64,000 nucleotides of DNA, taken from positions 22,524 through 86,523 of the forward strand of contig JAUCBJ010007084.1 of assembly GCA_032718475.1 (NCBI GenBank), in the 5' to 3' direction. The stretch comes from Nemertoderma westbladi (lineage: Eukaryota; Animalia; Xenacoelomorpha). How positions within the stretch are numbered: position 1 is the first letter of the stretch; each line of letters opens with the position of its first letter. The notes under the pieces are model-generated. The model saw nothing but the letters and a program-made list of their open reading frames with translations, was not told the origin of the DNA and ran no database searches. A program made the translations under genes and the position numbers. This document shows, piece after piece, positions 1 to 43,620 of the stretch.

Positions 1-62
1 ATACAAATTACATAAACAATAAGAAAGGCTCATGAGTCTTCCGTCCACCCTTGCCCTCCCTT

Positions 63-2362
63 TTACCGCTTGGTGGATCGAGCCTTGCCATGTCCTCGAA
101 AACTGCGTACAGGTAACTTTGCTTGCGGTATGGGACTTGTGGGGCGAGTCACTAGTTTACCTCGGACGTTGGGAGATGGTGCGACCATTTCCTCACATGC
201 TCGTCTATTAGGCATCCCAAATCCTCGACCGACTCCTCGTGATCGACCGGTTGTGTCTACCGTTGGTAAAACATCTGGGAACGCGTGGGAAGCGGACGAC
301 GCAGACCCAAGAGAAACTTGCGCCCCCCTTTGATCAGCTGGTATATGTCCCGATCCTCCTTGCGGTTCTCTGGTAAGTGACACCGTATCCCGAGTAACTC
401 GAATAGTCGGTTCATTTCCCTTGCGTTCTTCAATGTTGATAGTTTTCTTTAATTGTTGGCTCACTTTCTGAACCCTTATGATCCTATTCTGTCCGTCCTC
501 CCGAGGGTGTCGTGCAGATGGCGCAACCGGAGTGGCTGGTATGTTGGTCGCCTCTAGGATCTCCTCTTCCTCGAATACGCTCGCTCGTATACGTTTATGG
601 TAGAAGGCGGCTCGGTACACCCACGCGACGGTTAACCAAGCTCCTTTGTTTCATTTTTCTGTTCGAAACCGATCGAATTCACCATATGTGATACGATTGA
701 TGACTTTCTGGAACTTCCATGTATTCTTATTATCGGGATGAATCTGTAGCAAATACTCGCGCACAACTCTGAATCCACTATCGTGAGGCAAAATATCGAC
801 TACCTCGATAAGTTCATCATATTGGGGCATAGCGGAGATATATCCTTCCAACATCATAGTTTGAGGGTTTACCGCCCAAAATCCAAGATGTGCTCTCATT
901 GGGAATCGTCTTCTTTGCGCCGATACATGTTTGTCAGCTAAATCTTCCCATTTGTCAAATAGTTTTCTCACAGGTTTTACAGATTCGTGTTCGTATGGTA
1001 TGTCTCGTAATTGGCATTCAGACTCTCTATGTCCCTTTATATTACAATAGGTGCATTGAGCCATAAATCTCCAGCAAGTATAAAATGTATGGGACCCTTG
1101 ATCTCCACACCATCCACAGATTAGTTGAGTCGTAGTAATGTGCTTTCCACTGCACTTTGTTGAATGATGTCCAGCGACGCCACATTTACCACACATAGTG
1201 TTACCAGGGTACCACACTCGCTCATATATAAGATCTCCAATTGGACTTCCTCCCACACTATAGTCGTAGTCGTCTGGATCTACAGGTTGGTATGTTTCAG
1301 AAAGTTGTATGCAAACTACAGCATCTGTTGCTTCAAGTTGTCGAATCTCCATCTGGGATTTCTTCGGGAGGTTCCTTTCAATCTCAAGAAGTTCCTCTAG
1401 AGGATCATCAACGGTTGTCATTACTTCGAAATCATCACCTAAGTGACCGATAGGCGCGCGCGTCTGCCGTGATTCGTCGGTAATCTCCACGATACGTTCT
1501 CCTTCATAGGATAACAATGTAAACATAGATGGTCTTTCGATAAGAGATCCCGTACAGCGAAGATACACGTCTCGAAATATACTAAATCCTGCTCGAGTAA
1601 AGGCATTGCACTGAGCGTCGGAATTGTAGAAGGGTTTGAGAAATCGTTTAAACACGTCGGTATGAATTCTCCCTTCCGCGTAGAACGTATGATATTCTCC
1701 GAGACAAAGTGGATGTCTTTTAAGAGTCCGAGACACAATGTCGGCGACTAGGCAAACATTCACTGATGACTCTATCGCTAAATAATATTGTAGGACCACT
1801 CTTGGAGGTGACGTAATAGCCCAATACACGCATCATCTCCATTTGAGCTGTGATTCAAACTTGTTTATATCCGGAGTATCACCTTCACCATACGTTTCAA
1901 TATACTTGGTTCTTTTACTTTCCTTGTAATCCCAATTAAACATTAGGTAGGAGATGTATCCAGTTCCGGTTTTCTGAGTATCATACTCACGGAAAAATCC
2001 TTGTTCTATAGACTACAGTATAAGAGGTCGAGTCTCGACGTAAGGTGTCGGTAATCGGTCGTCACTGTCCGTCATGCCGGCGAAGTCGCTAATTAAGTCC
2101 TCTCTCACTCCTGATCCAATCTTTACAACGGTTTTATCTAAAATCATATTTCTTACCATCTTTGGTAGCATTCTAGCATCGATATTACAAGCTTGGTCCA
2201 TCTTCTTTACTATATTAGTGATGAGATGGTGTCGCTTTGTATTTGCTGGAGGTATTGGCATTCGTTTGTCGCTTCTTTGTCTACTGAAAACGTGAAAGAC
2301 TCCATCTGACGCTCTAATTTGTATAGTCTTGGAAGTCAGACTTTGTTGATGGCTGCCGCCCT
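63..2362 (-). pseudogene. C-terminal half of element A ORF3 (exonuclease-like core, CCHC knuckles)
   Basis: ORF pieces 2013-2372, 651-1829 and 63-620 match ORF3 of C (GGSHQQSLTSKTIQIR...ARSTKR) with in-frame stops near 2013, 1833 and 651. Confidence 0.92.
2358..2362. repeat. Left target-site duplication (GCCCT) of element B
   Basis: GCCCT directly precedes TGTTA at 2363; the same 5-mer follows TAACA at 22420-22424. Confidence 0.95.
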
Positions 2363-4226
2363 TGTTAAACAAGGCGCGATCCCTATACTAACAGCAGAAC
2401 TGTTGAACAGACAAATACCGGTATACTTCTCTGCCCACCTAATAAGTTCCTGCCTAACCAATCAGACACCAAGACTGCTCAGAGTGTATTCTTACGCCTA
2501 ATTTTACTTACTGTTATACGATAGTACCTAAGCTCTTTCTAATCGCGAATACTGGGGGCTCCCTAACAGAATGTGTGAATGCGAGAATATTTAAAAATAA
2601 TCAAATCTGGTACAGTATGCTGTCTCTACGTGCGCGTAAAACCACTCCGGGTCTAAAATTGCCTGCAGCTGGCTTTAGGCCAGCAAATTACTAGTGTACA
2701 GTGTCTTTTAATACTGAATAATGCGATCTAGCTTATTGCCCGCTAATGGAAATAACCGCTCAGCGTGAATAGTTTACGGTACGCTAATTATTACCTTAGC
2801 TACTCTCCGCTATGCTGCGTACTAATTCTTAATTTTAATAACTAATTACAGTCACAAATGTGTAACGGCGTACTAATTACTAAGTATTCCAGAATGCGCA
2901 ATTCTAATTTATTACGCAATGAATCACATTAGCAACAACCTAATATACCGTATTACTTTGACTTAATCAATAATTAATTACAGTAATCTAAGAAATAGAA
3001 ATCAATCAAAGAGAAAGGGGGCCTATCTAAGTGTTCATAATCTTAGGCACACTTCAGTAACACACCAATCAGCGTCAGCAATCATAGCTCGCAATTATTC
3101 GCAAGGTGTCCACAATCGTGCAATTCACTTTCTACACTGATCATCAACACTAACATCTTTCACTGTCACTGTAATGCGTACAGGCCCCTCCCGGGTACGT
3201 ATAGGCTTCCTAACTAACCCAATTCCTGCCCCCTAATACTAAAATAGAGACAAAACCTGGATCATCAGCCCCCTAGTTACCGTACCAGCGAGCGGTCTAC
3301 GCACCACAATGCCAGTTGCCCGACCGCAACGATGACCCCCGCCAGCGTTGCTCGCCTTTGAATCCTCCACTCCCTTCGTCGCTAACCCCCCGATGTGCCC
3401 ACCGCCTACCGGTACCTTAGCCCTTCATCCGGATTAATAGCTACCGTAGCGGCACATGCAAATCACAAAGGTCTGATAGTCTCAGAAATCCCGTAGGATT
3501 ATTGTGTCGAAAGGAATTACATAGAACCATTAACTAAAGGGTAGAAATCACAGTTCCATGATGTAATTAGCAGTAATCTTTGAGATTGATTGAGAAACAC
3601 AACAAGAATCAAACAGAAATTATAAATTTGCAAATCATTTCAAGAAAATCAAAAAAGGGCAGTAATTTACGCAGAAAATATACGGAAAATTAAGCACAGA
3701 TTGGGGGATGGTGTGGGGAGAATAATACAGACATACCGGCACAGCTCCAATTTATAGGTGATTTCAGAAGGATGATGTAATCGGTCCCCTATTGGCTCTC
3801 CAATCCGCCCCTACCATCAGACCAACCTAAGAGCAGTTAGGCCAATAAGGAAGCCGGATTGTGAACCTCAGGGCTTCCAAATCGCAAATTATTACCATAT
3901 ATGGTAATGGATCATGCTCCTGGCTACTGAATGGTTAGGACTGCGTTCCTATGCTAGCCATGTCGAGGCTAATAACAGCAAGCCCGTATCCAGGGTCCAA
4001 CAAGAACTTGCTACCCTGGGACTATCTACCTATATCCTAATACAAAATTACATAGATAGGGCTACATACTATACAAAATGGATGAATTCAAATATATGGG
4101 CGTTTTAACTTCCTTATCTAAATGTCACCGCACTATGCCTTATCTAAATAATTATAATGCACAATAACAAACATATTATACTGTATGATGGCTAATAATG
4201 TGGATACAGCGCCATATACCGTAACA
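2363..4226 (-). repeat. 3' LTR of element B (1864 bp; lacks a 277-bp segment present in the 5' LTR)
   Basis: Near-identical to 20279-22419 (about 19 substitutions counted by eye); missing segment 20397-20673 is bounded by CTC microhomology. Confidence 0.95.
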
Positions 4227-4233
4227 CCGCTCC
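4227..4233 (-). other. Short polypurine tract (GGAGCGG) of element B
   Basis: Abuts the 3' LTR start; the same heptamer abuts the 3' LTR of C. Confidence 0.8.
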
Positions 4234-4742
4234 AAGGGAAATCATACAATGTTTCCCTCCAATTGTAGAAGAGTATAAGGTGATGTATACAAACAAAATA
4301 AATTTCTTTCAAATAAACTAAATACTTGGTACTACAAATTCTACTATTTACAAATATTGCCATAGATATATTGCATAATGAGTTTACGTACAAATTAAAT
4401 TTACAAAATATTATCTCCTTCAATATTAACGATTATTTCATACAAATTAAGTTTCAAATATTGTTTCTCGTTCGTTCTACATAATGATTACTACATACAA
4501 GATCAAATATAAAAATTTTTGCTAGGGTAGGTGAAAGAAGTAAGCCAAACCCGCAGGTTTGTCTCCCCAATCACTTCCTTCGCCTCTTTCATAATATAAA
4601 TTCAAATTAACGCAAAATATAAATTCAAATCAACGCAACTAGTGTATATGAGTCTAGTCGGGTATTTCTAAAAATGCTACAATATACATCAGAGCGACGA
4701 TGATGTATATATCTAGAGTCTGTCACCCTGTGCTATAATGTA

Positions 4743-7700
4743 TTATCGACCTGCTCCTGGGTTCTTTGGGCTCGCTCCTCTCCTTTGCCCCCTACCCAGA
4801 TACACTAAGCGTCCTCTGGTAGTTGATTCTGTTGACGGCGTCCGAGAGCCATCACTCCCCGGAACCGGCGACGACGTTCCCTGAGCCCCGACTGATTCTC
4901 GACTGGTGCTTCTCCCTCGGCCTCGTCCCAATCGTGCTCCTGTGGTCGCTTCCGCCAACTCTTCCTTATGCAATTGCACTCGCGCCTTCTCCGATGCCCC
5001 CTGCGCCTTGCGCTGCAATCGCTGAGCCTCAATAATTGAATGATAGTGGTCGTCCTTGACTTGACGTTTGTCTCGGACCTCTCCTCCTGGTTCTCTCCGC
5101 GAGCCTTGAGCTCCAGCGGTTGTCACTGTGGTCGCCGCAATCCTCTGTTCCTGTATCCTCTCAGCGGTCAATGACCCCACTGGCACATGAGTCAACAAGA
5201 ATTCGTTGCGGTATTGTATAGCCGCCATCCTCCAATCACCTCTCGCGCGTACCACCTTTCTAGTTTCCGAAAACAGACGTTTTGTAATTCGGTCGCAAAT
5301 GGCAACGAAGTTCCAAGTATACTTGTTGTCCATATTTAACTGTCTGAAGTATTCTCGGACTACGATAACTCCAGTGTTTTGTGGAAGGTCTTGAGCGGTC
5401 AGGATGAGCTCTTGATACTGTGGCAAAGACTGTAAATACGGCTCATATGCAACGTGAGATGGGTCTACTGCCCAAAATCCGTATCCCGCCTTAAATGGTA
5501 ACCAACGCATCTGCACTTGAATGTGGTAGTCGGCCACACTCTCCACCTTATCTAACATCTCCCGAAGTAGGTTGGCGCTATGGTTTTGGAAGGAATCATC
5601 TCGCAGCTGACATCTCGCGCTACGATGTCCCTTTACTCCACAATATCCGCATTGAGAAATGAAGACGGTGCACGTGTGAAACAAATGGTCGGTCTCATTA
5701 CACCAACGGCAAACCTTATGCGCCGCCTCTACTACTGCGTCGCACGATTTTTGATTGTGCCTTGTGCTGCCGCACAACTTACATCTACGCGCTTGTGGAA
5801 ACCAGGCCCTCTCGTATATGAGGTCTCCAATCGGTTTCGCACTTCCTTCTTTCCCAATGTCCAATACGATGTCATCCTCTCCGGTCAGCGGTTGTCGATC
5901 CGGAACAAAGTAAACATCCTCGCCCTTGTCCTCTATCTCCAATATTTCCTCCCACGTTTGTTTCGGATATGTCTTCTCCACCAGAAGATCCACTCCGAAT
6001 ACCTCTACTAACGTCTCCAGCCAACCCTCTTTAACAGGTCTATCAGCCTCCGAGTGGAAGGGAGTACCAAACCCGCGGGTTTGATTCCCGAACCACTTCT
6101 CCAAGGCCTCTGGCGTCGGATACTCCATCGACGGTCGGTCTCCCAAGTCTCCGATGTTCTGTCGATATACTCCTTCGAATATTGCTAATCCCCTCCTAAC
6201 CATCGACGTATTCTCTAACGATTGGTTGAAGAACGGGGTTAAGAAACACTTCATCACGTCGGATTGGATTCCCCCTTTCGAGCGAATGTATTGATCTCCT
6301 CCGAACACCAATGGATGACGCTTCAAAACTCGCGCAACGATATCTACTAATAAACAAGTTACCGTGTTCGACTCAAGCACCAAATAATATTGTAGTGACG
6401 CACGGGGTGGCGCGCAAATGTTCCAATACACCAACGCTTGCCGCTTGAAGTGGGATTTGAACTCCGCTCCCGGTGGCGTGTTGTATTCACCATACGCCTC
6501 CTCATACTTCTTCTGCGTCTTTAACTTAAAGTCCCAATTATACAATAAATGTGCTATGAAGCCCATACCAGTCTTGGCAGAGTTGGGATACTCTCTATAA
6601 ATTCCAATATCCCGTGCCCATAGCAACAATAGCTTGGTGTCGACGAACGGTCTCGGCAATCTATCTTCCAAGTCAGTCATGGCGTTGAAGTCACTCTCCA
6701 AATCGCTCTGGACTCCTGATCCCACCTTGATGTAATCTTGGTTGAGAATAGCCTCTCTAACCTTCTTGGGTAACATCCTGGCGTCGATACGCTCTGCTCC
6801 GTGCATACCTCCTTGCCTGCATACCTCCAAAATCTGTTCTCTAGGATCCTTTCCCCTCCGATATTGTGTTGTTATGATGGGCTCCGGTCTCTCTCTATCC
6901 GCCCTTACGCGCATAAACACATGAGTCACACCATCGGCCGCACGAATTTGAATGCACTTGCTAGTCAAACATTCTTGATGGGACCCTCCTTCATTGTCGT
7001 AGAACATCACTCTCCAATCTTGCAGTGATTCCTCCGTCTTCCTCCACTGACGCTGAATCTCGTCTGATGGGGTCCACATGCGCTCGATAGCCTTGTGGTC
7101 ATCATATCGGGTGTAAGAACCCTTCCTCCTCAGCCACGTCTGGTCTACCTCCTCGTTGTCTGGGAATGTAGCCACCGCGACCCATACCTTGATGTACTTG
7201 TCTAACCATCCAAACAGTTTACTCTCCTTCCCCGGAGCTCCAATCTTGTCTAGTGTGTCATAATCCGTGATCTGCATCGGGACATCACGCAAGAACTTCA
7301 CGCATAAAACTTCCCGTAGACAGTCAACGTTCCAATGATCCGCCATTCTCACCATCGGCAAGAATCTAATCGCTTCTCGCAACTCCGGATGATCTACCAA
7401 TATCGCAGGTTCGTTGCCGTCGTCGGCATAATACACCAGTCGGGGTTGAGATACGGCCTGTGGAACAAATCCGGTCGCTCTCCTCGTCTCCTCCTGATGT
7501 CTATCCGCGGTCTTATTATATTCTGCTACCCGCTTCTCGAATAACTCCTTCGCTTTCACCGCTCGCTCCTCCTGCCGCAACGCGTCTATGTCGTCCTGAT
7601 GCTCAGGCGTGAGGGTTCTCGCTCGATGAGGCGAAGTAAACGTAGTCCAGGGACTCGAGAGCTCCAAACCCGCGGGTTTGGTACCCGAGTCCCGTGCCGC

Positions 7701-8453
7701 TTCGCGCCGCGCCTCTAGGTCCTTGTAGGCTCGGTATAGCGAAATGGCCGCTGATGTCTCTATCAAACTGGGTCTCGAACAGGGTTTAATCTCCGTATAC
7801 GGATCTAATGTTGTAACGGTCGGCGTAACAGGTCTAGGAGGTTGCTTTCCGCTGAAGTCGATACTGATCATCGGGTTGCTCATTGGGTAACCTCCCTCGT
7901 TGTATCTGAGGAACTGATGAGCCGGACATCGTGTTAATATTGGTTCGGGATGTTGCTCGTCCAGTCGGTCGGGAATCGCGACGTCTTGTTTGTTCATGCA
8001 TTCACCACACTTGTAAAACAACTTGTACACACTGAAGACCTTCGGCGTCTCTTGATCCTCGCCTCGAGTCCTCCGGTACAGATGCATTCCGTCGAACTGG
8101 TCTCGGACTGCAGGTAGCGGTTCTTCATGTCGTAAATACATATTCATATGGTACAGCCGCGCAATCTCCTCATCTGGGTCTGCACTAATGTCACATACGT
8201 CTAAAGCGAAGTCGTAGGGATACCGAGTGCGATACTCTCTCCGCAAAACTTCCATACGGTCCCCCAACGCTCTCATTCTTTCCCTCCTTAGCTCCTTGTC
8301 ATACGCAGGTTTATATTTCCCATTTAGTTCCATCACCGACCTCCCATGGTAGTAAACATTTGAATCTTTACATCCCGGTCGCGCGAATGGTAACTCCGCC
8401 TCCTCTCTAGCAGTAAATCCTCTGCGCGGTTGCGCTCTAATTCCCTTCTCCAT
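4743..8453 (-). CDS. Element B ORF3, 1236 aa from MEKG: putative DEDDy-type 3'-5' exonuclease + CCHC zinc-knuckle protein
   Basis: Uninterrupted ORF. Motifs FYDNE, CIQIR, LPKKVREAILNQDYIKVGSGVQSD, FVDT, YW..PP..LQYYLVLE; three CX2CX4HX4C; RGRGR tail. Alignable to ORF3 of C. Confidence 0.85.
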   Translation of the reverse strand: MEKGIRAQPRRGFTAREEAELPFARPGCKDSNVYYHGRSVMELNGKYKPAYDKELRRERMRALGDRMEVLRREYRTRYPYDFALDVCDISADPDEEIARLYHMNMYLRHEEPLPAVRDQFDGMHLYRRTRGEDQETPKVFSVYKLFYKCGECMNKQDVAIPDRLDEQHPEPILTRCPAHQFLRYNEGGYPMSNPMISIDFSGKQPPRPVTPTVTTLDPYTEIKPCSRPSLIETSAAISLYRAYKDLEARREAARDSGTKPAGLELSSPWTTFTSPHRARTLTPEHQDDIDALRQEERAVKAKELFEKRVAEYNKTADRHQEETRRATGFVPQAVSQPRLVYYADDGNEPAILVDHPELREAIRFLPMVRMADHWNVDCLREVLCVKFLRDVPMQITDYDTLDKIGAPGKESKLFGWLDKYIKVWVAVATFPDNEEVDQTWLRRKGSYTRYDDHKAIERMWTPSDEIQRQWRKTEESLQDWRVMFYDNEGGSHQECLTSKCIQIRAADGVTHVFMRVRADRERPEPIITTQYRRGKDPREQILEVCRQGGMHGAERIDARMLPKKVREAILNQDYIKVGSGVQSDLESDFNAMTDLEDRLPRPFVDTKLLLLWARDIGIYREYPNSAKTGMGFIAHLLYNWDFKLKTQKKYEEAYGEYNTPPGAEFKSHFKRQALVYWNICAPPRASLQYYLVLESNTVTCLLVDIVARVLKRHPLVFGGDQYIRSKGGIQSDVMKCFLTPFFNQSLENTSMVRRGLAIFEGVYRQNIGDLGDRPSMEYPTPEALEKWFGNQTRGFGTPFHSEADRPVKEGWLETLVEVFGVDLLVEKTYPKQTWEEILEIEDKGEDVYFVPDRQPLTGEDDIVLDIGKEGSAKPIGDLIYERAWFPQARRCKLCGSTRHNQKSCDAVVEAAHKVCRWCNETDHLFHTCTVFISQCGYCGVKGHRSARCQLRDDSFQNHSANLLREMLDKVESVADYHIQVQMRWLPFKAGYGFWAVDPSHVAYEPYLQSLPQYQELILTAQDLPQNTGVIVVREYFRQLNMDNKYTWNFVAICDRITKRLFSETRKVVRARGDWRMAAIQYRNEFLLTHVPVGSLTAERIQEQRIAATTVTTAGAQGSRREPGGEVRDKRQVKDDHYHSIIEAQRLQRKAQGASEKARVQLHKEELAEATTGARLGRGRGRSTSRESVGAQGTSSPVPGSDGSRTPSTESTTRGRLVYLGRGQRRGASPKNPGAGR

Positions 8454-9212
8454 TATGCACCGCGTATATACATATATATATCCCAATAAGTACCGTTACG
8501 TAACCAATTACACTGTGGGTAAATCAGTTAGATGTCGCCGAAAGACAGACCTCCCGAACCCCCCGCTGCCTTCCAGCAGTTCAGGTTCGACTCTCTAGAT
8601 CCCGTCTCTTCCTAACTAACTATCCTCTAACCTATTCCCATGCATAGCGCAAAAAACTTTGGAGATAAACTGGCCGTGACCAACTCACTTTTTGATGCCC
8701 AAACTACTCCCATTACTCGTACTAAACTACAGTAGTTAGAAGGGACAATAGTCTTGATTGTTCGACTATACCAAACCCACAGGTTTGATAATCGAATGTC
8801 ACACTTCACTGCAAACTACTGAGTGGGGTCCGTGTACGCCCTGGTGCTACTAACCTTTAGCACCTTAGTTGTACTGTTGGCACCAATCTGTGGAAGTTGC
8901 TAAACTCAATTTACACTCCTACATAATATAGCCGTCACCACGGTTTCTAAATGCTATTTTCCAGGCTTCACGACTTTTCAAATTACTGTATCTCTATAGA
9001 CGAATTCTAAAACGCGTCTATACACAGCGTCTGAGATTGTCTTGGGTTCACTTCTAATTTTTTTTTTTTAATTTTCCAAAAATTTTGAAAATAAAATTTT
9101 GTTTTTTGATACCCACCAGATAAAACTCAACGCAAATCACCACAACCCCGCTCCTATGCATTTCCTAGTATTTGCATATGAGGAATGCATACGAAGTGAG
9201 TTGTGTCCAACA

Positions 9213-10810
9213 CTAACTTTGCTTTGAGGCAGGAGACAAATTATAATCTCCTGTCTCTATGCGTGTCTCTTCCAATAACACAATATCTTGGACCGGTCGG
9301 TCCAAGGTGTGTAAACCATTAGTTTTACACTTCTTCGGGTGCGGACACTTGCACCTAATTTTCACAGTGACTGTGCACACTATGTTTTGCACGTCTGGGT
9401 GTATATGCAAGATCACTCCAGTCTCCCAATATTTTCTCTTGACTATCGGCTCGGTTATTAATACGTAGTCTCCTCTTTGGAGGCTCCGAACCGTTTTGTA
9501 CCACTTATTTCTGGTGGATATGGTAGGAAGATAATATTCCCGCCAATATTCCCAGAATGTGTACGCCACAAATTGAGTCACTTTCCAGCTTTTACGACTA
9601 TATAGTTCGGCACTAATGGGTTCTGATGCCGGCACAAGAAATGCTGGACTCTGCATTAGCAAATGATTCGGCGTTAATGCAACACCATCTGGCAACATAG
9701 CTATCGGCCTCGAGTTTAGGGTATGCTCGATTTCGATGAAAGCTGTAACCAGTTCGTCGTCGGTAAGTTGTTTATTTACAGGCAATGTTTTGGCAATGGC
9801 CTGTTTTACAGAGCGAACCAAACGCTCCCAACTTACTCCTCTCCAAGGACTTTCTGGAGTATTAAATCTCCACTCTACTCATTGCGGCAAAAGTGCTGCA
9901 GAAATTTCTTTATTCTGTGCTGCTTTGTGAGCCGCGTTTAACTCGCTATTCCCTCCGACAAAGTTTGTACCCTTATCGGAGTAGAACGCCTTTACTAGTC
10001 CTCTCCTGGCCATAAATCTCTTTAAGGCCAGGAGCAGAGATTTGGTCGACATGTCTGCCACACGCTCGACATGTATGGCTCTACTAGCCATGCATTTCAG
10101 TAGCAGACCCCATCGCTTGTGGGTCAGCCGTCCACTCTTTGCCTCAATCGGACCAAAACAATCCACCCCTGTGTTCGTAAAAGGTGGGTCATATGCCTGC
10201 ACTCTCACTTCCGGAAGTTCAGCCATCTCCTGTTCCAATACTCTGGCGTTCACCCTCTTGCAAACCAGACAGGCGTCGTACATAGTGCCTACTGCCCTGC
10301 TTGGCTGCAATAGAATGAATCGACAAACAGTGTAACTTTCCCGCGTGATGCAACCTCTTGTGTATATCCCATAGAATCGCTCTTTGCAATTCTATTGGGT
10401 GACTAGGGATTATCACTGGGAACCGAAACTGTGAATTTATGTCGACAGTCTGGATTCTCGATCTATGACAAATTAAACCCTTATGGATTAATGGACTCCA
10501 TTATCTAAGGGGTTTATAGAGAACTGGTTGTTGAGCCGATAATAGGTGGAATTCTTTCGGGAAGGCACACATTTGATAATGCTTCAAATGCCTTAATTCC
10601 GCTTGATCAATCTCATCCTCTGTCAGAGGTTGTTTCAATTTCTGAATTCGCTCACTATTAGCGCTCGTTTGTTCTCCCAAATGTTTCTAATGTTTTATAC
10701 AAAGGTACAAAACGTATCGGCTTAACCACGCAGTTCTTTTACAAATTGTCAGCCAAGAGGCAGACGAATTTAGTAATTTGTCATAAACACTGCATGACTC
10801 TAATGCCAAC
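9213..10810 (-). pseudogene. pol: Element B integrase (BEL-type, disrupted)
   Basis: HH-CC finger (HKRLHHAG...CLVC), TGVDCFGP, SDKGTNF, GVWERLV and BEL C-terminal FWEYWREYY/RPVQDIVLL; stops near 10687, 10502, 9879 and a frameshift near 10320. Confidence 0.9.
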
Positions 10811-12141
10811 GACGGTTGTCCGCTAACTAATGGAAGTTTCGAATCCAAACCCGCAGGTTTGGAAACCAAATGCTCCATTGTGTCGGTCATTTTCTGTCCG
10901 TCACTTACCAACTGTGACCGTCGTCTAGTCTGTAAGGGTGGTTTTACGTCATAACTTTGCTTGTGTCCTTCTGGGCTCCTCCCGGAGGAGCACCCACGAG
11001 GCGGACACTGTCCCACCACCCCTGGGGCCAGTCTGACTGATGTTATTATCAGACCGGGCTGGAGGGTGGCCCGATGCTTCCCGGGTTCTGTTTTCGGTCC
11101 CCCGATCACACCGGCACAGCTCGTCGAACGTGTAGCCAGATGGGTGGCTACTGTCAACTTACTGTGGCCTGACTGTACATTGAGCCAACTCAAAGTATAA
11201 CAAAGAGTCAACCGGCAGGTGGACCAGTCGATAGCGATCAAGCACCAAGGTTGCCCTTGGGCCTAACTGACGGTCTTGTCCCACGTGGGCTTGCGCTACC
11301 CAACATGGAATATTGACACGTTTTCACCCGCCTCGCCGGCAGTATTGAGGGGAAGTAAGTTCCGCAAACAATACTGACTAGCTCGAAAGCTAGGAACAAG
11401 TAACCACTTACCAGTCGCTGTACACGTGTACTCAACAGATGTTCACGATATCAAGTACACTACGGTAAACACAAAATCTGACACATACCATGCACACACA
11501 GGAGACATAATCGGGAAAGACAAAATCGGGGTCAAATCGTGAGGGACAAAATCAGAGGGGACAAAATTGTATCGACCAACCAGAAAGTCGAGAGTACCTT
11601 ATTTTACCATCGGGGCAAAATAACTTTGTGTGCACAAAGTATGCTGGGGCGCAGTAAAGTATGGTCCTACTAATACCAGCGGCGTCTGGACCAACTGGCA
11701 AGGTTTCCCACACTCACTCACAGTGGCCATACATACAATCACGTGTACTCACATACCCACAGCAACAGAAAGCTCATCTCAGACCTAAACACACTCCAAA
11801 GACCAATCAGCTGAACATGGAGACAATAACATATAGTATCAAAAAAACGGAACAGCTGACGGTCAATGGCACACATCCAAGCCCCAAAGCTAACTGCCAC
11901 TGCTCGCCCACATACAAATCACAGTTCACACCACATGAACCACAAATCACACCATGCCACCACCCCTACTGTGTACAGGACTGGCAGTACGGCAACAGGC
12001 CGACTAGACGGAACCACGGCACCATGTCGATTCATGGTTCGTCAGACACGAGGGCCTTCAGTATCTCCCTTGCACTTAGGTCAGGAAATTTAACGTGCCC
12101 CTAGACCCTCACGAGTCCGCTGCCGCCTGCTAAGGGCACCT

Positions 12142-15100
12142 CTATAGAGACCTCACCTCTTTAGGTACCCTTCCGGACCTAGTCGTCACGTAAGTCTGTA
12201 GGTCTGACAGGTCTCCGGGCTGCTCCAATGACTCTTCAGGCTGCTCCAATGACTCTTCAGGCCGCTCCAATGACTTGAGTTTGGCTTTCGACTTTGACTT
12301 GGAGACTTTCTCCACTTTGACTTCTGCATCTTCTGGCATCGGATTGGTCACTATCTTCAGTCGCTCTGGCCAATGTTCCTGTGTCCTCGTTAGAAAATCA
12401 GGTCCATGCAACCAAAACTCCTGGGACTCTTCCTGACAGAATTCCGCCGGCATTGCACCTCTCGAAGTTATGTCGGCCGGGTTCAACACTCCCGGACAAT
12501 GACTCCACTGTTCCTTTGTCGTAAAGTCGACAATCTGAGCGCGTCTGTTGGCCACAAATGTCTTTAGTGCAATATTGTCGGCTGCAATGTATACTAACAC
12601 CAAGGATGCGTCCGTCCAATAGAATAAGGTCAATGTCGTGTCTAGCTCCTCAATTATCTGCTTACTTACCTCGACTGAAACTACTGCCACCTGTAACTCT
12701 GCACGAGGGACAGTCATGTATTTGACCGGCATTGTCTTTGATCTAGAAGTCACAAAGGCCGTCTCAAACTTGTCCTGACTTACCTCTCGGCGAAGGTAGG
12801 CTACCATACCAAAGCCGGTGTCACTTGCGTCACTAAATAAGTGGAGTTCGAGATCAGCTAGAAATACCAGCTGATTCGGAAAGTAGGAACGAGGTACATC
12901 TATATTTTTCAATAGATGTAACTCGGCTTCCCACTCTCTCCACTGCTTTGCATGTATAGGAGATATTGGTTCGTCCCACTCTAGGTTGGACAACCAAATT
13001 TTCCTCATGCACGCTCGTGCCTGTAATATTACCGGACTGATAAAGTTCATCGGGTCAAATAGTCTACTCAATGTCGATAAGCAAATTCTCTTTGTCAAAA
13101 TCTTGTCTGGGCTACTGGGCTCAAATCTAACTCTTACCTGGAACTTGTCCGTGTTCGGGTTCCAAGCATGTCCCAGTACTCGCGCCATGGGGATGGGTTC
13201 TACCCCCAATTCAATGTCTCCGCTCCTGCGATCTTTCACCGGGAACGACTCTAATAGGGCCTCCGAGTTCGTAGTGAACTTGGTCAGAGGAAAACCCCCT
13301 GTAGCCAAGCACTCCTGTAGGCCGTGAGCCACTTCTATGGCTTGTTCCGCCGTGTCCTTAGACACCAATCCGTCGTCCATGTAGAAGTTTCTCAAGATGG
13401 ACTCGATAACCTCTACTGGGTACTTACCAATCTGGGCTGTTGCCGTTTTCCTTAGAACAAACAGCGTACCATTGGGACTATCGCGGGTGCCAAATATCCT
13501 AACGTACATTTGGTATGTAACCACTGGGCCGGATAAGTCTTCATTCTCAAACCAGAGAAATCGAAGGCTATCCTGGTCTGCCTTACAGGCTCTTACCTGG
13601 TGGAACATCGCCTCGATGTCACAAGTATGAGCGAATCGCCACTGTCTAAAACGTAACAGTATACCTATCAAATAATTATTCAGGTTGGGACCATCCATCA
13701 ACTCTGAATTCAGGGACATACCTCTATAGACTGCCGCGCAGTCATTGACTACTCGGACTTTGTCAGGCTTGTCAGGGTGAGTCACATAGTGGTGTGGAAG
13801 GTAATATGTCTGGTCTGTCACTAAGTCAGGGTCCTCTACCTTCCCAGCAAATCCCTTGGCGAAATAGTTGTTGATCTGGGCGCAATACTTCTTCCTAATG
13901 TCTGGATTCCTTAACAACCGAGCCCTTACTCCGTTCAATCTTTTCAAGGCTAAACTGTAGTTGTTCTCCAACTTAGGTGGTTGTCGACGCCACAACATTC
14001 CAACTTCAAAATGTCCAGTCGGTAGCAGACGTATGGTGTCTTCCATCATCTCCAGCGACCGTTTCTCATCAGTAGACATGGTTAGGTCATATCCACCGGG
14101 TTCCATTGCGTCCCTTTCCAGCCATTCGACGGTTCTAGCTCCTGTCTCGAGGTCCTGGCGTATCAATTCCTTCTGTAGCTCCTCTTCACTGTATTGGAAA
14201 ATGTCTAGGTCTCGATATTTAGCCACTTGACCCTCCACTATATCGGTATAAGTCAAAACGTTACTCAAATAGGTAGCGTGGGCCGCTGAACCAGACCCAC
14301 GGGTCTGATAACAGTAGTCCTCGGGTTCACTATCTGTCCGGTCGTTGTGAAGTGGTTCCGACAACCTAACATTATCGGGAATCAACTCCTCGTCCGACTC
14401 GCTAACGTCACTATAATGGTCAATACAGGTTCTCCTAAACTCGTCTAAGTCTGGTGGTTCTACTAACGGTGGTTCAGTTATAGTCTGTAATTCGTCGTAT
14501 CTATCTATTGGCTTGTCGCCACCTGTAAACTCATAAGACATGGGTACTCGTGTATACCAACCTAATATAGTCCTATGGGCATGTGGTCCATTTACATGCG
14601 GTTCAGCTGGTCTCGTTTCCCATATTTGGTGTGCGATTAGCTGTTCTGCACCAATCAACATAGAAACATTCCTATAACCTACCTGGTGTCTGGGTACTCT
14701 GAGCTTGTCAAAATACTCCTGTGCTATGGGACTCATTGGCGGCACCTTACCTAACTGCCTGCCGAACCCCTTCATAGCTAGACACTTAAATCCGTCCAAT
14801 GGCAAAGCTCTCTGTTCTTGTCGAGTATGTTGGTCTCTCGGAAGTAGGGAGTCTAATTCTACCGAAATTCTGTGTCCCTTGAGGTCCCCTACCCCGTGCA
14901 TAGACTTCAACTCTATTTGGATCTCCTCGGCATCTTGGAAGCTAGAAACGGCTCTCGCCACTTCCTCGTCGATATAAGATAATGTGGACGCTGTGTCCAA
15001 CATCACATATATCCGCTTTGATCCCTTATCTCCAGTAAGTTTCACCAGAATCACGCTGAATATTTCCGACGTGGCCGATGATAAATACGTCCGCGCGCTG

Positions 15101-15250
15101 GTCGATGAACTGTCCGCAGTGAAACCTTGGCAGGTCACTTCTCTCGCGCTTAACTCGCCATCTTCGTCCGACGAACCTGGTTGGTAACCATCGTCCTGGA
15201 TGCTAGTATACGTATTTCTCCTTCTCGATACGGGTTCTTTCTCCCCTTCC
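12142..15250 (-). CDS. pol: Element B pol segment: aspartic protease, reverse transcriptase, RNase H
   Basis: MLDTAS (PR); YYLPHH, KVRVVNDCA, DIEAMFHQV, FYMDDG (RT); LFSDAS, PRAEL, WTDA, NPAD (Pao RNase H). The start is approximate because the frame changes from gag near 15250. Confidence 0.92.
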
Positions 15251-18200
15251 TTTGAGGATTTTGCTGTAAGTAACGGTCCGTTGGGGTATGGAAATCCGCA
15301 TGTAGCAACTTGTGATGTAATCTGCCGCATTCCATGCATCCGTCCTTGCTGTTCGGGCACTGCCGCCGTACATGTCCTGGCGCAAGACAAGCCCAACAGG
15401 TGTCCAACGTCCGCACCTGAACTCTTCTCTGTTCCGAATTTAATTCTTTGAACCGTCTGCAACTATCTAACTTATGGTCGTCAGATCTTACCTCCTTTAG
15501 TAAGCAGAATTGGCAACCTACAAATCCATCCGGCAACTCCTGTTGCTTTAACCTAGGTCTATCTAACCGCTCACCTGACCATACTCGCGAGTCTGATCTA
15601 AAGGCTGGGGTACTCGAATTATATCTGTCTACTAAATTAAATGTCACAGTGGTCCTGTCATCGTCAAAACTTACCATAGACTTACCGGTAACAGGTTTAG
15701 ACTCCCTCATATTCTCCTCTGAGAAGTTTGATTTCATCTCTGCTACTGCGTCTGTGGCTATCATGTCATGAATGTGTTGAAGTGTCAATACTTTACCTTG
15801 GCCCTCCAACTTGTTCTCTAATTTGCGCCATTTCTGTCTGTAACGCATGTTTAAACATCTTATTACGCTTTTTAAAACTTTGGCGTGATCTCCATGATGA
15901 GGTAGATTCACCGTCCTCAAGATGTCTAATGCGTTCGAAATAGCGTTCGCTAAGTTCAACAGCTCTAACGGAGTTGTAATCCTTCCGCCCTTACCCAAGT
16001 CTTCCACTATCGACTGCGCCATCTTGGTTTTATTCCCATAGATGTCGCTAAGCGTCTTCATTGCTAACTCAAATGCTCTTTCATTGCCGACGAAGTTGTC
16101 AGCAATGACTCTAGGTTCTCGATGGAGCATCTGAAGCAAATAGTTGAACTTCTCGTTGGGAGTAAAGGTGCTGTTGGTCAGCTGTTCGTCGACATAGGTT
16201 TTGAATGTCCTCCAGTGTTTGTGGTTGCCCATAAACTTCTGGGGTTGTTGCGTCGGCAGTCCTTGCCTAGCAGCAAACTTACCTATGTCCCTAAGGGTTG
16301 CGTCGTTCCGGGTTAACAAATGGTTTAGTTCCGCAGGGTTATTAAGTCTGGTCCTTTCCCGGTGGTTCCAACTTACCTGCTCCGCGTCGGTCCTTCTTTC
16401 CTTATAGTTTCGGGACTTCTGACGTCTCATGTCTTCCTCTTCATCGCTTGACTCGGTGTCAGTCCTTAGTGAGACCTTGGCAGGTTTGCGTGCTGAGGCC
16501 CTGACCCAAGCGTCCTGTATAAACTTTTCCGCCGAATTTTCGAAATTGGGATTATGGATAGTCAGGACAGGCGTCCTTACCTGAGGTCTATGTATAGTTG
16601 CCTCTGATATACGTACTCGTTGATTAGGTTGGACTTTATCTAAGTCAGGCCTGCTAGGATTTGAATTACTCCTTACCTGGGCTGCTTCCTTTAACCGTAG
16701 GTTACTAAGCATGTCCATTATAGGTTGGATGAGCGGCGATATAGCTTGCGCTAAACTGGCACTTAACTCATCCCTCGTAATAAATTCCTGGCTAGGGTTC
16801 TGTTGTATAGTCGGCTCTATCTGAGTAATCCGCTGTCTCTCATATGATCCCTCTTCCGGTTTAACCCGGAAGTTCTCCGTCGAACTGGGTCGGCGCTCCG
16901 TTCGCGTATTCCAAACCCGCGGGTTCGGTTTGCCTAATACTCGTCCTGTCGGAGTTTCTCTAAACTCTTCATCGTCTCATTTGGTATGAAGTGGTGCGGT
17001 GTTCCGATGACGTGGATTCTGCGCGATGGGTGAAGCACTAATACCAACTGGCGTGCGATATGTAGAGAACGGTTTAGCGATCCGAGTACTCGTAATAGCT
17101 GGACCAGGTATAGGAATTCTGGTCGTCGTCGACTCGCGTATAGTCTGAGTTCTCGCTTCCTGTTCGGCCTTCTGCAGTGCGAACAGTTCTCGCAACTCAG
17201 TACCTACACTCGCCCCACATTCTTCGATCATTCGCATCCCCTTCTCGGCGATTTCATTCGCCTTCCTGGTCCGTTCTTCGCTCTCTAAATTTGATCTCGC
17301 ACTTTCTAACTGCGCCAGTTTACGTTCTTCTTCTTCCCTCGCTCGTCTCGCTACGCTCTCTTCTTCCAGTTGTGCCTTTTCTTCATACAACATCTGTCGC
17401 TCTTTCTCAATCTCGAGTTCGCGTTCCTTGCGTTCACGTTCAAGTTCGAGTTCGCGTTCTTTCTGTTCGCGTTCGAGTCTGAGTTCGCGTTTCTTTGCTT
17501 CCTGTTCACGTTCGAGTTGGAGTTCGCGTTTCTTCGCTTCCCGTTCGCGTTCAAGTTGGAGTTCTCGTTCTTTCTGTTCGCGTTCAAGTTGGAGTTCGCG
17601 TTCTTTTCGTTCGCGTTCCGCTTGCTCACGCTTACCTTTGTCTTCCAACTCCCGCAACTTTGCGTCTAACTTACGTGCGCGCTCCCATTCCCTTTCAGCT
17701 TCCTTCCGTGCTTCCGATGCATGCAAAACTTCCGCCTGTTGTTCGTCCAGTCGGCGTCTTCTCTCCTCCGCTGAGTTGTGAGAAACAAGGGATCTAGCAC
17801 ATATAACTTTCCCTCGCGTGTGACTAACCTGGGAATCGCCACTGTCTCTGGATGCGTCGTCGGGTGGAGTTAACGTACTTTGTTGGATGTTCTCCGTTGT
17901 CGGTAGCACCTGGCCCGGTACCACCACTCCACTCTGCATCAGCCAGCTAGTAACTTCCCTCTGATAACGGCGCTCCTCCTTGTCTTGGATCTCTTCCTGC
18001 TCCACTAAGTTTCTCAACTCTGCGTCACTCACCTGAGTCGCCTGCGCTTGTGATGCCCATAGCAGCCAGTTCTCCGTCCTAACTTGTCGGAATCGCTCCG
18101 ATAACGCGCGGTGCTCCAACAGGGCTGCTAAAACCCTGTCGTAAATCCTCGTCGCCACGTCGCTCGACTGAGACTCCACTGCTCTCTTTGCTAGGACTGC

Positions 18201-18779
18201 AAGCTCCTCCGTCTGCTTAAATAACGCTGAGTTGTATCCCTTTCTAATCTCTACTAACCCTGCCCGTCCGATGTTCGCTGAGTCGGCTAGCATCTTCCTT
18301 ACCTTGTCCGTCGTCCGAGTTATATGTCCGGCATGCGCGCGAAGTTTCTTCTTTATCGCGATGTCGAACTCTCTGTCACTTACCTGACTTACACTTGGTG
18401 GACTTGAAGGATTATTCCGGGAACTACGGGTACTCCTTATAGCCGCTGGGACCACGGCACTTACCATACCCACAGGTCTGGAAACCGGGCTCCGGGCTCT
18501 CGCTTCTGCTACACTAACCTCCCTATCACTCACCTCTGGTCGGGCTGCTGTACAATCCTTCCTTACAGTAGTGGTAGGGGATCCTAATACTATTACTTGA
18601 GGTTGTTGTTCTTCCTCACTAGTTACTGTCTCGTCCTCCTGTTCACTTACGTCAGAGTCGCTCGCTGCGTCGTCATAGTCGGCATTGTCGTCAACAGTAA
18701 TATTTACGCTATCGTCAGTCGGCGGTCCAGCCGCCATCTCATAGCTGTCCTCTAGTGCCTCCTTGTCTGAGACACTCAT
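15150..18779 (-). pseudogene. gag: Element B gag (coiled-coil N-term, BEL capsid-like domain, three Zn fingers); one in-frame TGA at 16977
   Basis: ORFs 16977-18779 and 15150-16718 share a frame. PQKFMGNHKHWRTF..EKFNYL; CQFC..H..C, CWACLAPGHVRRQC, CMECGRLHHKLLH. Confidence 0.9.
17410..17620 (-). repeat. ~33-39-bp coding tandem repeat (ERELQLEREQK) in B gag
   Basis: Repeated gttcgcgttc...gagtt units encoding an E/R/K-rich coiled coil. Confidence 0.8.
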
Positions 18780-19781
18780 AGTCTAAATAATGTTTTGCCT
18801 TCCGGCAAAAATATCTCACAAAATTTCGAGATATAATTATAATTTAACCGAAATACGGTCAAATTATTTGACAAATAATCAGTTGGTCCAAAATGTCAAA
18901 ATAAATTCGCAATGCAATATTGTGAATTTAATAGGATATAGTTATAGCAAATACTAGCACAATATTTAAACAAAAATATTATTATATAGCTATTATATAG
19001 CATTTTAATACCGGTATAGCACAAAATAACTTTGAATCTAATACAAAATATTCAAAATAAACTTGCCACCCGAATATTTCTAATTTTACATATATAGCTC
19101 TAATTAACACAATTTTAATTTCAAATATTATATGTATCCACTAGCGCGTGGCTACATCTTCGGGTTGCGACTCTCTCAAACTCTCTCTCTAACTTGAGCG
19201 ATTCAAAAAACCATGGCCGGCTAAACCTAACTAACCTAACTAATAAATTGAGTTCAGCTTCGCAGTTAAACAATCGGTAATTTTTTACTGCTTCCACAAA
19301 CACAATAGTGCCAACAGAACAACTAACCTTGTTTGCTGTGAGATTCCACGTCCGCGTCCAAAGATTCAGGCTCTTCGCTGATTGCAAACCGAACCCGCAG
19401 ACCCACACGAACCCTAAACTCAGAAGTCCCGTCTTGCCATGTATCTCCAGATGGTATAAAATAACTAAGCGGTTACCTAACATACCGGTACAAAACTCTA
19501 GAATTTTACAAATAATTTTGACCAAAACTAAATTCTCGCAAACCTAACTAAAATTTTCAAAAAACTAATTAATTACAGCTTGCCCTTAGGCCTAAGGAAC
19601 TGCTGTATTCGCAATTAGTAAAAACGCACTACCGTACATCCATTGTACGCAGTACAGTAAGTAGAACAGTACACCAACCTAACAGCCTAAAGAATACTGT
19701 ATGTTGAAGTGACCGAGGTTCCAGTTGGGTAACGTAGTTTAATCAAGAAAAGCAATATTAACGAACAACTAAATAATCCCA

Positions 19782-19822
19782 TGGTACGTTTCGATATATT
19801 ACAAAATAATCATCATCAGCCA
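19782..19822 (-). ncRNA. Minimal type I hammerhead ribozyme-like motif (left arm)
   Basis: TGG CTGATGA T GATTATT-ttgt-AATA-t-ATC GAAA C GTA CCA. Confidence 0.6.
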
Positions 19823-20006
19823 AATAAAATAAAACAACATACAGACAGAAACTCAAAATTCAGCAATTATAACTATTTACTAAATACGCCTAAATGTGTA
19901 CAACAGTTTATAAATTTTCAATTGAGTGACATGACAGGCTAGATTAAAGGTACAGTAGAATACAATGTTATGTAGTATGTTGTGCAGTATGTTGTTTTAT
20001 TTTATT

Positions 20007-20047
20007 TGGCTGATGATGATTATTTTGTAATATATCGAAACGTACCA
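20007..20047 (+). ncRNA. Minimal type I hammerhead ribozyme-like motif (right arm)
   Basis: Same sequence as the left arm on the opposite strand: CUGAUGA, stem II, GAAAC-GUA, short stem I TGG/CCA. Confidence 0.6.
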
Positions 20048-20268
20048 TGGGATTATTTAGTTGTTCGTTAATATTGCTTTTCTTGATTAAAATACTGTAT
20101 GTGGTACAGCAAAACAAATGTCCCTTCTACTATACGCAGTAACAGCAATCAGCCTAATGTACTACTGTACTATTGTACGCGACCAGTGAATACCGTAATC
20201 TAAACTTAACAGCCTAAGAATACTCTCAATGTCCTACTGTACGCGGTAGGCCTACAGCAGACAAAATA

Positions 20269-20278
20269 TACGCATTAC
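20269..20278 (-). other. PBS position of element B (GTAATGCGTA), non-canonical
   Basis: Immediately after the 5' LTR, no TGG start, complementary to LTR-internal 21364-21373. Confidence 0.55.
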
Positions 20279-22419
20279 TGTTAAACAAGGCGCGATCCCT
20301 ATACTAACAGCAGAACTGTTGAACAGACAAATACCGGTATACTTCTCTGCCCACCTAATAAGTTCCTGCCTAACCAATCAGACACCAAGACTGCTCTACT
20401 GTTAAATAAAGGTGATCAGGAGCGTGCTATTACTAAATGTAAGGCTGCTAAATACAAAACCACTACTTACCGTTAGATGGCGCTAATCTGCCGTCCGCTA
20501 ATATATTTTACTAAATTTACACGGCTCCTGCAAATTGCTTGTTCCTTTCTCTGCCGATTGCTCAACAGAGAGCTAACTGTTCGAATCTATGAGCCACGCG
20601 GGAATAACCAAAACAACAAACCCAAATCGGCTCCCTAAGCTGACTTAAGACGAGTGCGAGGGGCTTTGCACTCAGAGTGTATTCTTACGCCTAATTTTAC
20701 TTACTGTTATACGATAGTACCTAAGCTCTTTCTAATCGCGAATACTGGGGGCTCCCTAACAGAATGTGTGAATGCGAGAATATTTAAAAATAATCAAATC
20801 TGGTACAGTATGCTGTCTCTACGTGCGCGTAAAACCACTCCGGGTCTAAAATTGCCTGCAGCTGGCTTTAGGCCAGCAAATTACTAGTGTACAGTGTCTT
20901 TTAATACTGAATAATGCGATCTAGCTTATTGCCCGCTAATGCAAATAACCGCTCAGCGTGAATAGTTTACGGTACGCTAATTATTACCTTAGCTACTCTC
21001 CGCTATGCTGCGTACTAATTCTTAATTTTAATAACTAATTACAGTCACAAATGTGTAACGGCGTACTAATTACTAAGTATTCCAGAATGCGCAATTCTAA
21101 TTTATTACGCAATGAATCACATTAGCAACAGCCTAATATACCGTATTACTTTGACTTAATCAATAATTAATTATAGTAATCTAAGAAATAGAAATCAATC
21201 AAAGAGAAAGGGGGGCTATCTAAGTGTTCGTAATCTTAGGCACACTTCAGTAACACACCAATCAGCGTCAGCAATCATAGCTCGCAATTATTCGCAAGGT
21301 GTCCACAATCGTGCAATTCACTTTCTACACTGATCATCAACACTAACATCTTTCACTGTCACTGTAATGCGTACAGGCCCCTCCCGGGTACGTATAGGCT
21401 TCCTAACTAACCCAATTCCTGCCCCCTAATACTAAAATAGAGACAAAACCTGGATTATCAGCCCCCTAGTTACCGTACCAGCGAGCAGTCTACGCACCAC
21501 AATGCCAGTTGCCCGACCGCAACGATGACCCCCGCCAGCGTTGCTCGCCTTTGAATCCTCCACTCCCTTCGTCGCTAACCCCCCGATGTGCCCACCGCCT
21601 ACCGGTACCTTAGCCCTTCATCCTTATTAATAGCTACCGTAGCGGCACATGCAAATCACATATGTCTGACAGTCTCAGAAATCCCGTAGGATTATTGTGT
21701 CGAAAGGAATTACATAGAACCATTAACTAAAGGGTAGAAATCACAGTTCCATGATGTAATTAGCAGTAATCTTTGAGATTGATTGAGAAACACAACAAGA
21801 ATCAAACAGAAATTATAAATTTGCAAATCATTTCAAGAAAATCAAAAAAGGGCAGTAATTTACGCAGAAAATATACGGAAAACTAAGCACAGATTGGGGG
21901 ATGGTGTGGGGAGAATAATACAGACATACCGGCACAGCGCCAATTTATAGGTGATTTCAGAAGGATGATGTAATCGGTCCCCTATTGGCTCTCCAATCCG
22001 CCCTTACCATCAGACCAACCTAAGAGCAGTTAGGCCAATAAGGAAGCCGGATTGTGAACCTCAGGGCATCCAAATCGCAAATTATTACCATATATGGTAA
22101 TGGATCATGCTCCTGGCTACTGAATGGTTAGGACTGCGTTCTTATGCTAGCCATGTCGAGGCTAATAACAGCAAGCCCGTATCCAGGGTCCAACAAGAAC
22201 TTGCTACCCTGGGACTATCTACCTATATCCTAATACAAAATTACATAGATAGGGCTACATACTATACAAAATGGATGAATTCAAATATATGGGCGTTTTA
22301 ACTTCCTTATCTAAATGTCACCGCACTATGCCTTATCTAAATAATTATACTGCACAATAACAAACATATTATACTGTATCATGGCTAATAATGTGGATAC
22401 AGCGCCATATACCGTAACA
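20279..22419 (-). repeat. 5' LTR of element B (2141 bp)
   Basis: Direct repeat of 2363-4226; TG...CA ends; TATAAA near 21944-21949 (minus) with CCAAT boxes upstream. Confidence 0.95.
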
Positions 22420-22424
22420 GCCCT
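22420..22424. repeat. Right target-site duplication (GCCCT) of element B
   Basis: Matches 2358-2362. Confidence 0.95.
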
Positions 22425-41556: not shown

Positions 41557-41567
41557 GTAGGAATATG
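41557..41567 (+). other. PBS position of element C (GTAGGAATATG), non-canonical
   Basis: First bases after LTR identity ends; conserved in A (34027-34037); complementary to 40492-40502. Confidence 0.55.
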
Positions 41568-43374: not shown

Positions 43375-43620
43375 ACGGCAGCGGTTGATTTAGCGCAACG
43401 AAACGCAGCGGTCGAGTTAGAGCGACAGATGGCAGCGACTGATTTGGAGCGACAAAACGCAGCGGCTGATTTGGAACGACAAAACGCAGCGGCTGATTTG
43501 GAACGACGAAACGCAGCGGTCAAGTTAGAGCGACAAATGGCAGCGGCGGAATTAGAGCGACGAAACGCAGCGGCTGATTTAGAGCGACGAAACGCAGCGG
43601 CGGAATTAGAGAGAGAAAGA
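43375..43620 (+). repeat. 27-bp coding repeat (AAADLERQN) in C gag
   Basis: About nine 9-aa units; fewer copies in A. Confidence 0.85.

Follow-up and report, generated by a model that had tools for sequence, protein, structure and literature searches.

What might a short palindrome be doing, repeated along the coding region of a retrotransposon? The question arises in a stretch of 64,000 nucleotides from the xenacoelomorph Nemertoderma westbladi (GenBank assembly GCA_032718475.1, contig JAUCBJ010007084.1, positions 22,524 to 86,523 of the forward strand), hereafter called the window. It contains three BEL/Pao long terminal repeat (LTR) retrotransposons, A, B and C, each with a sense third open reading frame (ORF3) of ~1240 amino acids after pol. 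Element B (2363..22419, minus strand; delimited by self-BLAST, end inspection and Pfam PF05380, PF03564 and PF18701) carries a 16-bp palindrome for which the original prediction, made from the letters alone, had proposed family-specific cis sites, serving either a dimeric DNA-binding factor or RNA hairpins or dimerisation. Our analysis points towards RNA. Taken together, readings in which the sites work at the RNA level are probable, and the leading single explanation, which we hold tentatively, is that they are family-specific self-tags on the sense RNA that would be bound by the zinc knuckles of ORF3.

The five sites first listed in B are all present at their coordinates, with one mismatch at 4546, 10846 and 16912 and none at 6068 and 7665, but the inventory was incomplete, as four more occur at 8772, 14292, 15580 and 18465. 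Window matches to the 16-mer with at most two mismatches number six against 0.02 expected, a count reached in none of 100 shuffles. The nine sites of B follow the sense consensus Y-CARACC-YGYG-GGTHTG-G with small departures; a weight matrix derived from them, and hence circular for them, gives them scores of 24.7-32.9 and the next site 14.6. They were located by sequence scan, the first also by weight matrix, and all lie on the minus strand of the window. In sense order they stand in the N-terminal part of gag (18465..18480, centre TGTG), in the middle of gag (16912..16927, CGCG, with a sense-strand pair of G-U type), ahead of the gag knuckles (15580..15595, CGCG, closing pair T-A), in the linker between protease and reverse transcriptase (RT) (14292..14307, CGTG, whose arms carry a double change from A-T to G-C), in the RNase H-integrase linker (10846..10861, TGCG), in the pol-ORF3 spacer (8772..8787, TGTG), twice in ORF3 where the protein reads KPAGL (7665..7680, CGCG) and QTRGF (6068..6083, CGCG), and in the 3' untranslated region (4546..4561, TGCG). 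Two weak sites, at 19385-19405 (score 3.1) and 7396-7415 (score 14.6), are possibly decayed or nascent.

The palindrome had been reported as missing from A and C. This is correct for the exact 16-mer, but a related motif stands at nine places in C and at matching places in A. Element C (39612..58526, plus strand) is a sister family of B, with 58% identity in the RT-RNase H region and 39% in ORF3; A (1..34960, minus strand) is decayed, interrupted by B, and belongs to the same family as C, to which it is 84-92% identical by self-BLAST. The C/A motif is GGAAGACT-YGYG-AGCCTWYC and that of B is YCARACC-YGYG-GGTHTGG, so the centre is common and the arms differ, apart from an ARAC shared on the left side and a GY-T shared on the right side. 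An unbiased search with 14-mers turned up nine dispersed places in C and eight in B, against at most four in one codon-block shuffle of each. The sites of C, all on the plus strand, were found by that search in the N-terminal part of gag (42455..42474, CGCG), by repeat and motif search in the middle of gag (44323..44585, TGTG, four copies within an 81-nt tandem repeat), and by motif search in the protease-RT linker (47043..47062, TGCG, with G-T replacing the usual A-C), the RNase H-integrase linker (49074..49093, TGCG), the pol-ORF3 spacer (51564..51583, TGCG), ORF3 (52711..52730, CGCG; and 54251..54270, CGCG, whose closing pair shows a T-A to G-C double change) and the 3' untranslated region (55686..55705, CGTG; 56273..56292, CGCG). 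These regions parallel those of B: both parts of gag, both pol linkers, the spacer, two places in ORF3, and the 3' untranslated region. The ORF3 sites fall at aligned columns without net insertion, 7665 with 52711 and 6068 with 54251, and the two protease-RT sites are no more than about 10 codons apart, in different frames. The site at 15580 has no counterpart in C, and C holds extra copies, which suggests that sites turn over while each family retains its own arms. In A, on the minus strand, the sites start at 33117, 31118-31370 (four), 28610, 26593, 24198, 23051, 1449 and 23, and three of their centres have decayed to CACA, CATG and TCTG. Motif places are kept between A and C, two copies of one family, and the lack of positional conservation that the original prediction had named as a refutation was not observed.

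The sites are conserved as nucleotides. Between A and C, none of 20 fourfold-degenerate sites differs within the 14-nt motif cores, against 382 of 1521 outside (p 0.003, or p 0.017 with the four tandem copies counted once). Thirteen of the 18 B and C sites lie within reading frames, one C site is tandemly repeated, and the motif is read in all three frames, as had been noticed; codon or protein constraint is ruled out as its cause by the three frames together with the synonymous-site conservation. The proposed cis sites, specific to a family and under constraint as nucleotides, are supported, and the sister family's different arms around a common centre strengthen the case. Spacing is also more even than under random placement, with a coefficient of variation of 0.24 in B (allowing for a 1.2-kb insertion; p 2e-4) and 0.30 in C (omitting the last copy of the 3' untranslated region and three tandem copies; p 2e-3). 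A pattern covering both families was designed on B and C, so that its 9 and 12 matches there are circular; it finds 8 matches in the 13,992 nt of A and none in LTR, flanking and inserted sequence totalling 19,241 nt. That absence and the aligned ORF3 sites rule out a micro-insertion origin, which the original prediction had named as a danger to its case. Long contigs, of 3302 nt in sequencing run X1 and 2206 nt in X3, match B solely over 69 nt around a site (7647-7715); diverging elsewhere, they possibly represent a further family with the motif region as its best-kept part. Among contig variants over 7612-7732, none of the six listed falls in the motif, where about one is expected, a comparison with no power (contigs differ from the full B at about 1500 positions, 40 of them among those listed).

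We then asked whether the sites are more probably read as DNA or as RNA. On the sense strand every centre among the 18 in B and C is CGCG, TGCG, CGTG or TGTG, with 13 TG and no CA (p 2e-4). In the background, CpG sites that changed between A and C did so symmetrically (113 CA to 97 TG, and 43 to 46), which rules out a mutational strand bias as the origin of this TG rule. At synonymous and non-coding centre positions, T is found in 11 of 21 cases and A in none of 18 (p 2e-4; non-coding positions alone give 5:0, p 0.06). The CACA and CATG centres of the decayed A indicate that the CA state can be reached. A YGYG rule on the sense strand despite a symmetric background speaks for RNA rather than double-stranded DNA, and a distinction between TGCG and CGCA, kept in one polarity across three frames, would not be expected of a symmetric dimer on DNA. 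With the polarity, the TG-not-CA rule and the RNA-type domains predicted in ORF3, the RNA option fits better than the dimeric DNA-binding factor.

The hairpin form of that option fared less well. In B, an invariant 3' G closes all nine sites on the sense strand, with C or T opposite in eight; double changes that preserve pairing occur in the arms at 14292, 15580 and 54251, the last in C, and G-U-type variants on the sense strand affect five position types in the arms. Pairing probability in context is at least 0.94 at six of nine B sites and at most 0.03 at seven of nine C sites. A stable hairpin is consequently unsupported for C: the free-standing hairpin would not be general, and C would need a fold induced by protein, or a duplex.

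ORF3 is the candidate reader. In B it spans about 1236 amino acids (4743..8453, minus strand, from alignment and profile searches), with an N-terminal part of 440 amino acids, a DEDDy/EXD2-like exonuclease at about 7140-6330 and three CCHC knuckles at about 5780-5610; ORF3 of C (1241 amino acids, 51940..55665, plus strand) has the same architecture. Pfam gave no match for either protein, a single-sequence PDB search gave none that was significant, and a dedicated search with the N-terminal 440 amino acids was empty. Close relatives were found neither by word-index search nor in viral or metagenome contigs. HMMER recovered seven distant, shorter relatives; P0001-P0007, proteins of 514-727 amino acids on contigs of 2.5-13 kb, match the exonuclease and/or the triple-knuckle parts. 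A profile of B, C and the seven relatives matches EXD2 (E 5e-8), Lin28, trypanosome RNase D (PDB 7C42/7C45, through the knuckles) and retroviral nucleocapsid knuckles. Moreover, a profile of five relatives without the window sequences matches B (E 2e-19) and C (E 4e-16), and the acidic motifs align. Common to B and C are an ExoI-like D-N-E, whose register depends on a low-confidence alignment, the ExoII D, and an ExoIII-like Y...E with E for D. Structure predictions were of low confidence (mean pLDDT 48 and 36); a fold search with such a model gave no significant match, EXD2 standing on top with E 0.26, and the Atlas lead for ORF3 (exonuclease plus CCHC) scored 0.84, below the reliability mark. 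ORF3 is accordingly predicted to be an RNA-binding nuclease that joins a DEDDy/EXD2-like exonuclease to three zinc knuckles of Lin28/nucleocapsid type. Before its start in B lies a candidate splice acceptor (CTAAC, pyrimidines, CAG; 8513..8531, minus strand), and a similar candidate precedes it in C (51879-51909, plus strand). If functional, these would yield a spliced mRNA with three or four sites, which would suit RNA handling better than packaging of the genome alone.

How might the parts work together? Zinc knuckles in general hold guanines in pockets. We propose that the sites act as RNA and that ORF3 is their reader: the two invariant loop guanines would be seated in the knuckle pockets, and the arms would confer family specificity. 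A 3'-5' exonuclease would thereby be tethered at intervals of about 1.6 kb to RNA of the element itself, both genomic and spliced, where it could shorten or degrade silencing RNAs of the host or the ends left by cleavage, so that its own family would be shielded and others would not. The host-silencing purpose of this tethering is speculation and the least supported step. The wider scheme of RNA self-recognition, in which a captured RNase D-like nuclease and a co-evolving family barcode would shield transcripts from small-RNA silencing, is one we regard as rather doubtful.

Several observations weigh against ORF3-bound tags on RNA. The sense hairpins of C are weak (0 to -4.2 kcal/mol) and the antisense ones more stable at eight of nine sites; pair 3 in C is an A-C mismatch in eight of nine sites and would be G-U if antisense. 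In A, CpG loss is slightly lower near the sites (46/198 within 250 nt against 109/345 beyond 500 nt; p 0.04, post hoc), a weak hint of protection at the DNA level, and the N-terminal 440 amino acids of ORF3 could bind DNA. Gag likewise has three knuckles. Confinement of the sites to linkers may by itself even out their spacing, and the sites are not fully independent of each other. Since B and C are sisters, the association of motif with ORF3 counts as a single evolutionary event. An ORF3 profile found no match in 78 ordinary BEL loci, which were taken from the best 80 of 402 confirmed, but these are mostly 4-9 kb long and truncation could account for the absence.

Gag offers the next explanation, an unlikely one in our view: its three knuckles would read the sites as dispersed packaging or assembly signals on genomic RNA, and ORF3 would be occupied elsewhere, for example in trimming primers or 3' ends. 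The evidence that places the sites on RNA serves this proposal just as well as ORF3 tags. Dispersed packaging signals are known in single-stranded RNA viruses, and an even spacing over an RNA of 16-18 kb would suit cooperative packaging. There is also a precedent in the binding of UGCG by the nucleocapsid of Rous sarcoma virus (RSV; PMC8833184). On the other hand, one site in three is located 3' of the candidate ORF3 splice acceptor and would tag the spliced mRNA too. The motif class is, besides, nearly absent from the 78 ordinary BEL loci (one sense and five antisense matches to the two-family pattern in 521,172 nt), although these could use other motifs. A de novo search for dispersed palindromes in the 67 control loci of at least 4 kb gave a result like that of its shuffles, four loci with four copies and nine with three against two and eleven; this search is weak, its positive-control slices scoring 2-5, and other motifs may exist in these loci.

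We consider it quite unlikely that the sites are double-stranded DNA targets of a family-specific, VANC-like protein of the element that keeps the copy unsilenced. The arms are uniform within a family and different between families, as are the motifs of VANC21 and VANC6 (PMC5735166), and the poor hairpins of C, the CpG dip near the sites and element interiors without CpG depletion (observed/expected 0.98-1.2, against 0.47 for a long interspersed nuclear element (LINE) in the window) would all agree with it. However, for a symmetric dimer bound to a palindrome CGCA ought to be as acceptable as TGCG, and 13:0 was seen, with uniform polarity despite the different frames. The domains identified in ORF3 are of RNA type, VANC motifs are non-coding tandem arrays, and the centres in the decayed A have themselves taken CpG-type changes.

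Improbable, too, is pairing of RNA with RNA, whether among sites or across two packaged genomes, as a dimerisation or compaction signal spread along the RNA without a sequence-specific protein. YGYG comprises precisely those centres that stay self-complementary in RNA through G-U, no stable hairpin would be necessary, and predicted duplexes are stronger within a family (sense means -27.7 for B-B and -18.9 for C-C) than between families (-12.4), but this contrast is partly circular and follows from the motif definition. Furthermore, C sense duplexes are no better than antisense ones (-18.9 against -19.8), pairing alone does not readily account for the fixed mismatches in the arms of C, and it would not homogenise arms between sites. 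Finally, host-factor sites, or functionless relics of micro-insertions or repeats, are very improbable: the common ARAC and GY-T could be read by one tolerant host protein, but the synonymous-site conservation, the family-specific arms, the aligned ORF3 sites and the empty LTR, flanking and inserted DNA oppose them, and none of the SMAD, Runx, Gcm and Kaiso/BANP motifs is known to fit both families.

The elements themselves are BEL/Pao retrotransposons by their LTRs and target-site duplication, a gag with DUF1759, the Pao peptidase A17, DUF5641 and the order protease, RT, RNase H, integrase. Their pol finds its closest relatives among BEL proteins from marine invertebrates and fish (38-43%), and B and C form a clade of two with support 1.0 in a tree that took in the first 40 of 120 database relatives. 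Element B has its 5' LTR at 20279-22419, its 3' LTR at 2363-4226 and the target-site duplication GCCCT, and it is nested in ORF3 of A. Among contigs of sequencing runs, thousands from one organism and a few from a second match B, with no RNA run among the runs listed; in viral contigs neither its pol nor a BEL profile found a match. About 1.2 kb of foreign DNA (about 10958-12166) splits its pol within the RNase H-integrase linker; a loose contig end in run X3 skips this insertion, and the depth profile differs in X5. Its integrase region has stops and frameshifts, and its 5' LTR has ~274 nt (20397-20670) that the 3' LTR lacks, with a second LTR-end-like word at the edge. The 5' LTR of A is internally deleted, with ~0.9 kb remaining. 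The C LTRs (39610-41556 and 56588-58526) apparently begin and end with TA, not TG...CA, and include a stretch that resembles a tRNA, with words similar to A and B boxes (about 39715-39795 and 56715-56790) that neither ARAGORN nor Rfam calls; no Rfam family or tRNA gene was found in the whole window. Immediately before the 3' LTR, both B and C have TGGAGCGG instead of a plain purine tract. Elsewhere in the window, at 35241-37146, 37117-38253, 60428-61192 and 63073-63512, lie the decayed LINE (endonuclease and RT pieces, with the CpG ratio given above) and tandem repeats of 369, about 163 and 40 nt.

Priming of reverse transcription also appears to depart from the usual. BEL/Pao elements ordinarily have a tRNA primer-binding site starting with TGG after the 5' LTR; B and C lack it there and show GTA directly after the LTR. 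Their primer site is atypical, and the protein-based assignment to BEL/Pao stands. The first 10 nt after the LTR of B (20269-20278) are complementary to 21364-21373 inside the LTR (background rate 0.0016 per position), the first 11 nt in C (41557-41567) to 40492-40502 (0.0007 per position), and in both the complementarity stops precisely at the LTR edge. Such complements agree with the 10-bp rule for self-priming given in PMC6317226, where the lineages named are Tf1/Sushi and TAR. The elements of this BEL clade may be self-priming, and the ORF3 exonuclease may have a second job there.

These findings bear on how animal LTR retrotransposons distinguish their own RNA and on the role of their captured DEDDy genes, for which PMC5408684 offers suggestions only. 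The sites of B gain in interest from the separate version of the motif in the sister family: two families with different arms and one centre form a built-in swap test, protein of B or C against motif of B or C, as RNA or DNA. The parts of the system have precedents. In bdelloid rotifers, the Juno and Vesta LTR retrotransposons and the Terminons have a DEDDy ORF3 (PMC5408684); Juno and Vesta resemble B and C in an extra RNase D-like ORF3 after pol in which one acidic motif has E in place of D, but their clades are not BEL/Pao, and the ORF3 of B and C is about 1240 amino acids long with three knuckles. In the main text of that paper the strings 'CCHC', 'hairpin' and 'palindrom' do not occur. A UGCG tetraloop in muPsi of RSV is bound by a CCHC knuckle of the nucleocapsid (PMC8833184; bioRxiv 10.1101/2023.11.30.569461); UGCG is among the four centres of B and C, and both ORF3 and Gag have knuckles, but muPsi is one clustered 5' signal, in contrast to nine dispersed tags whose centres are also CGCG, CGUG and UGUG. 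In RNase D of Trypanosoma brucei, CCHC fingers deliver RNA to the DEDD domain (PMC9181182), a combination similar to that predicted in ORF3, and a DEDD-type exonuclease domain of Drosophila Egalitarian reads an RNA localisation signal (bioRxiv 10.1101/2025.08.03.668247); these are host proteins, for which the accessible text describes no self-encoded array of target sites. Accessory domains are the subject of a further source (PMC6338049). Our literature search, which reached neither Repbase nor most subscription journals and so leaves absence unproven, retrieved no DEDDy-knuckle ORF3 in BEL/Pao, no evenly spaced family-specific palindromes in coding regions of LTR elements, and no combination of the two.

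There is a likeness, too, with the VANC proteins of VANDAL elements, in which a short repeated motif differs between related families and stands next to an extra gene encoded by the element. VANC motifs measure 8-9 bp (YAGTATTAY, AGTTGTMC), form non-coding tandem arrays and are bound as double-stranded DNA (PMC5735166), whereas the sites of B and C are evenly spaced, mostly single and coding, palindromic and strand-polarised. VANDAL is moreover a plant DNA transposon, and B and C are animal retrotransposons whose extra gene has domains of RNA type. Should ORF3 prove to read the sites, an animal retrotransposon would encode its own sequence-specific reader, with a possible counter-silencing mechanism, and pairs of 20-nt RNA tags and proteins might find use as orthogonal tools. 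If the tags also shielded the transcripts of their family from small-RNA silencing, the VANC system of plants would have a counterpart acting on RNA.

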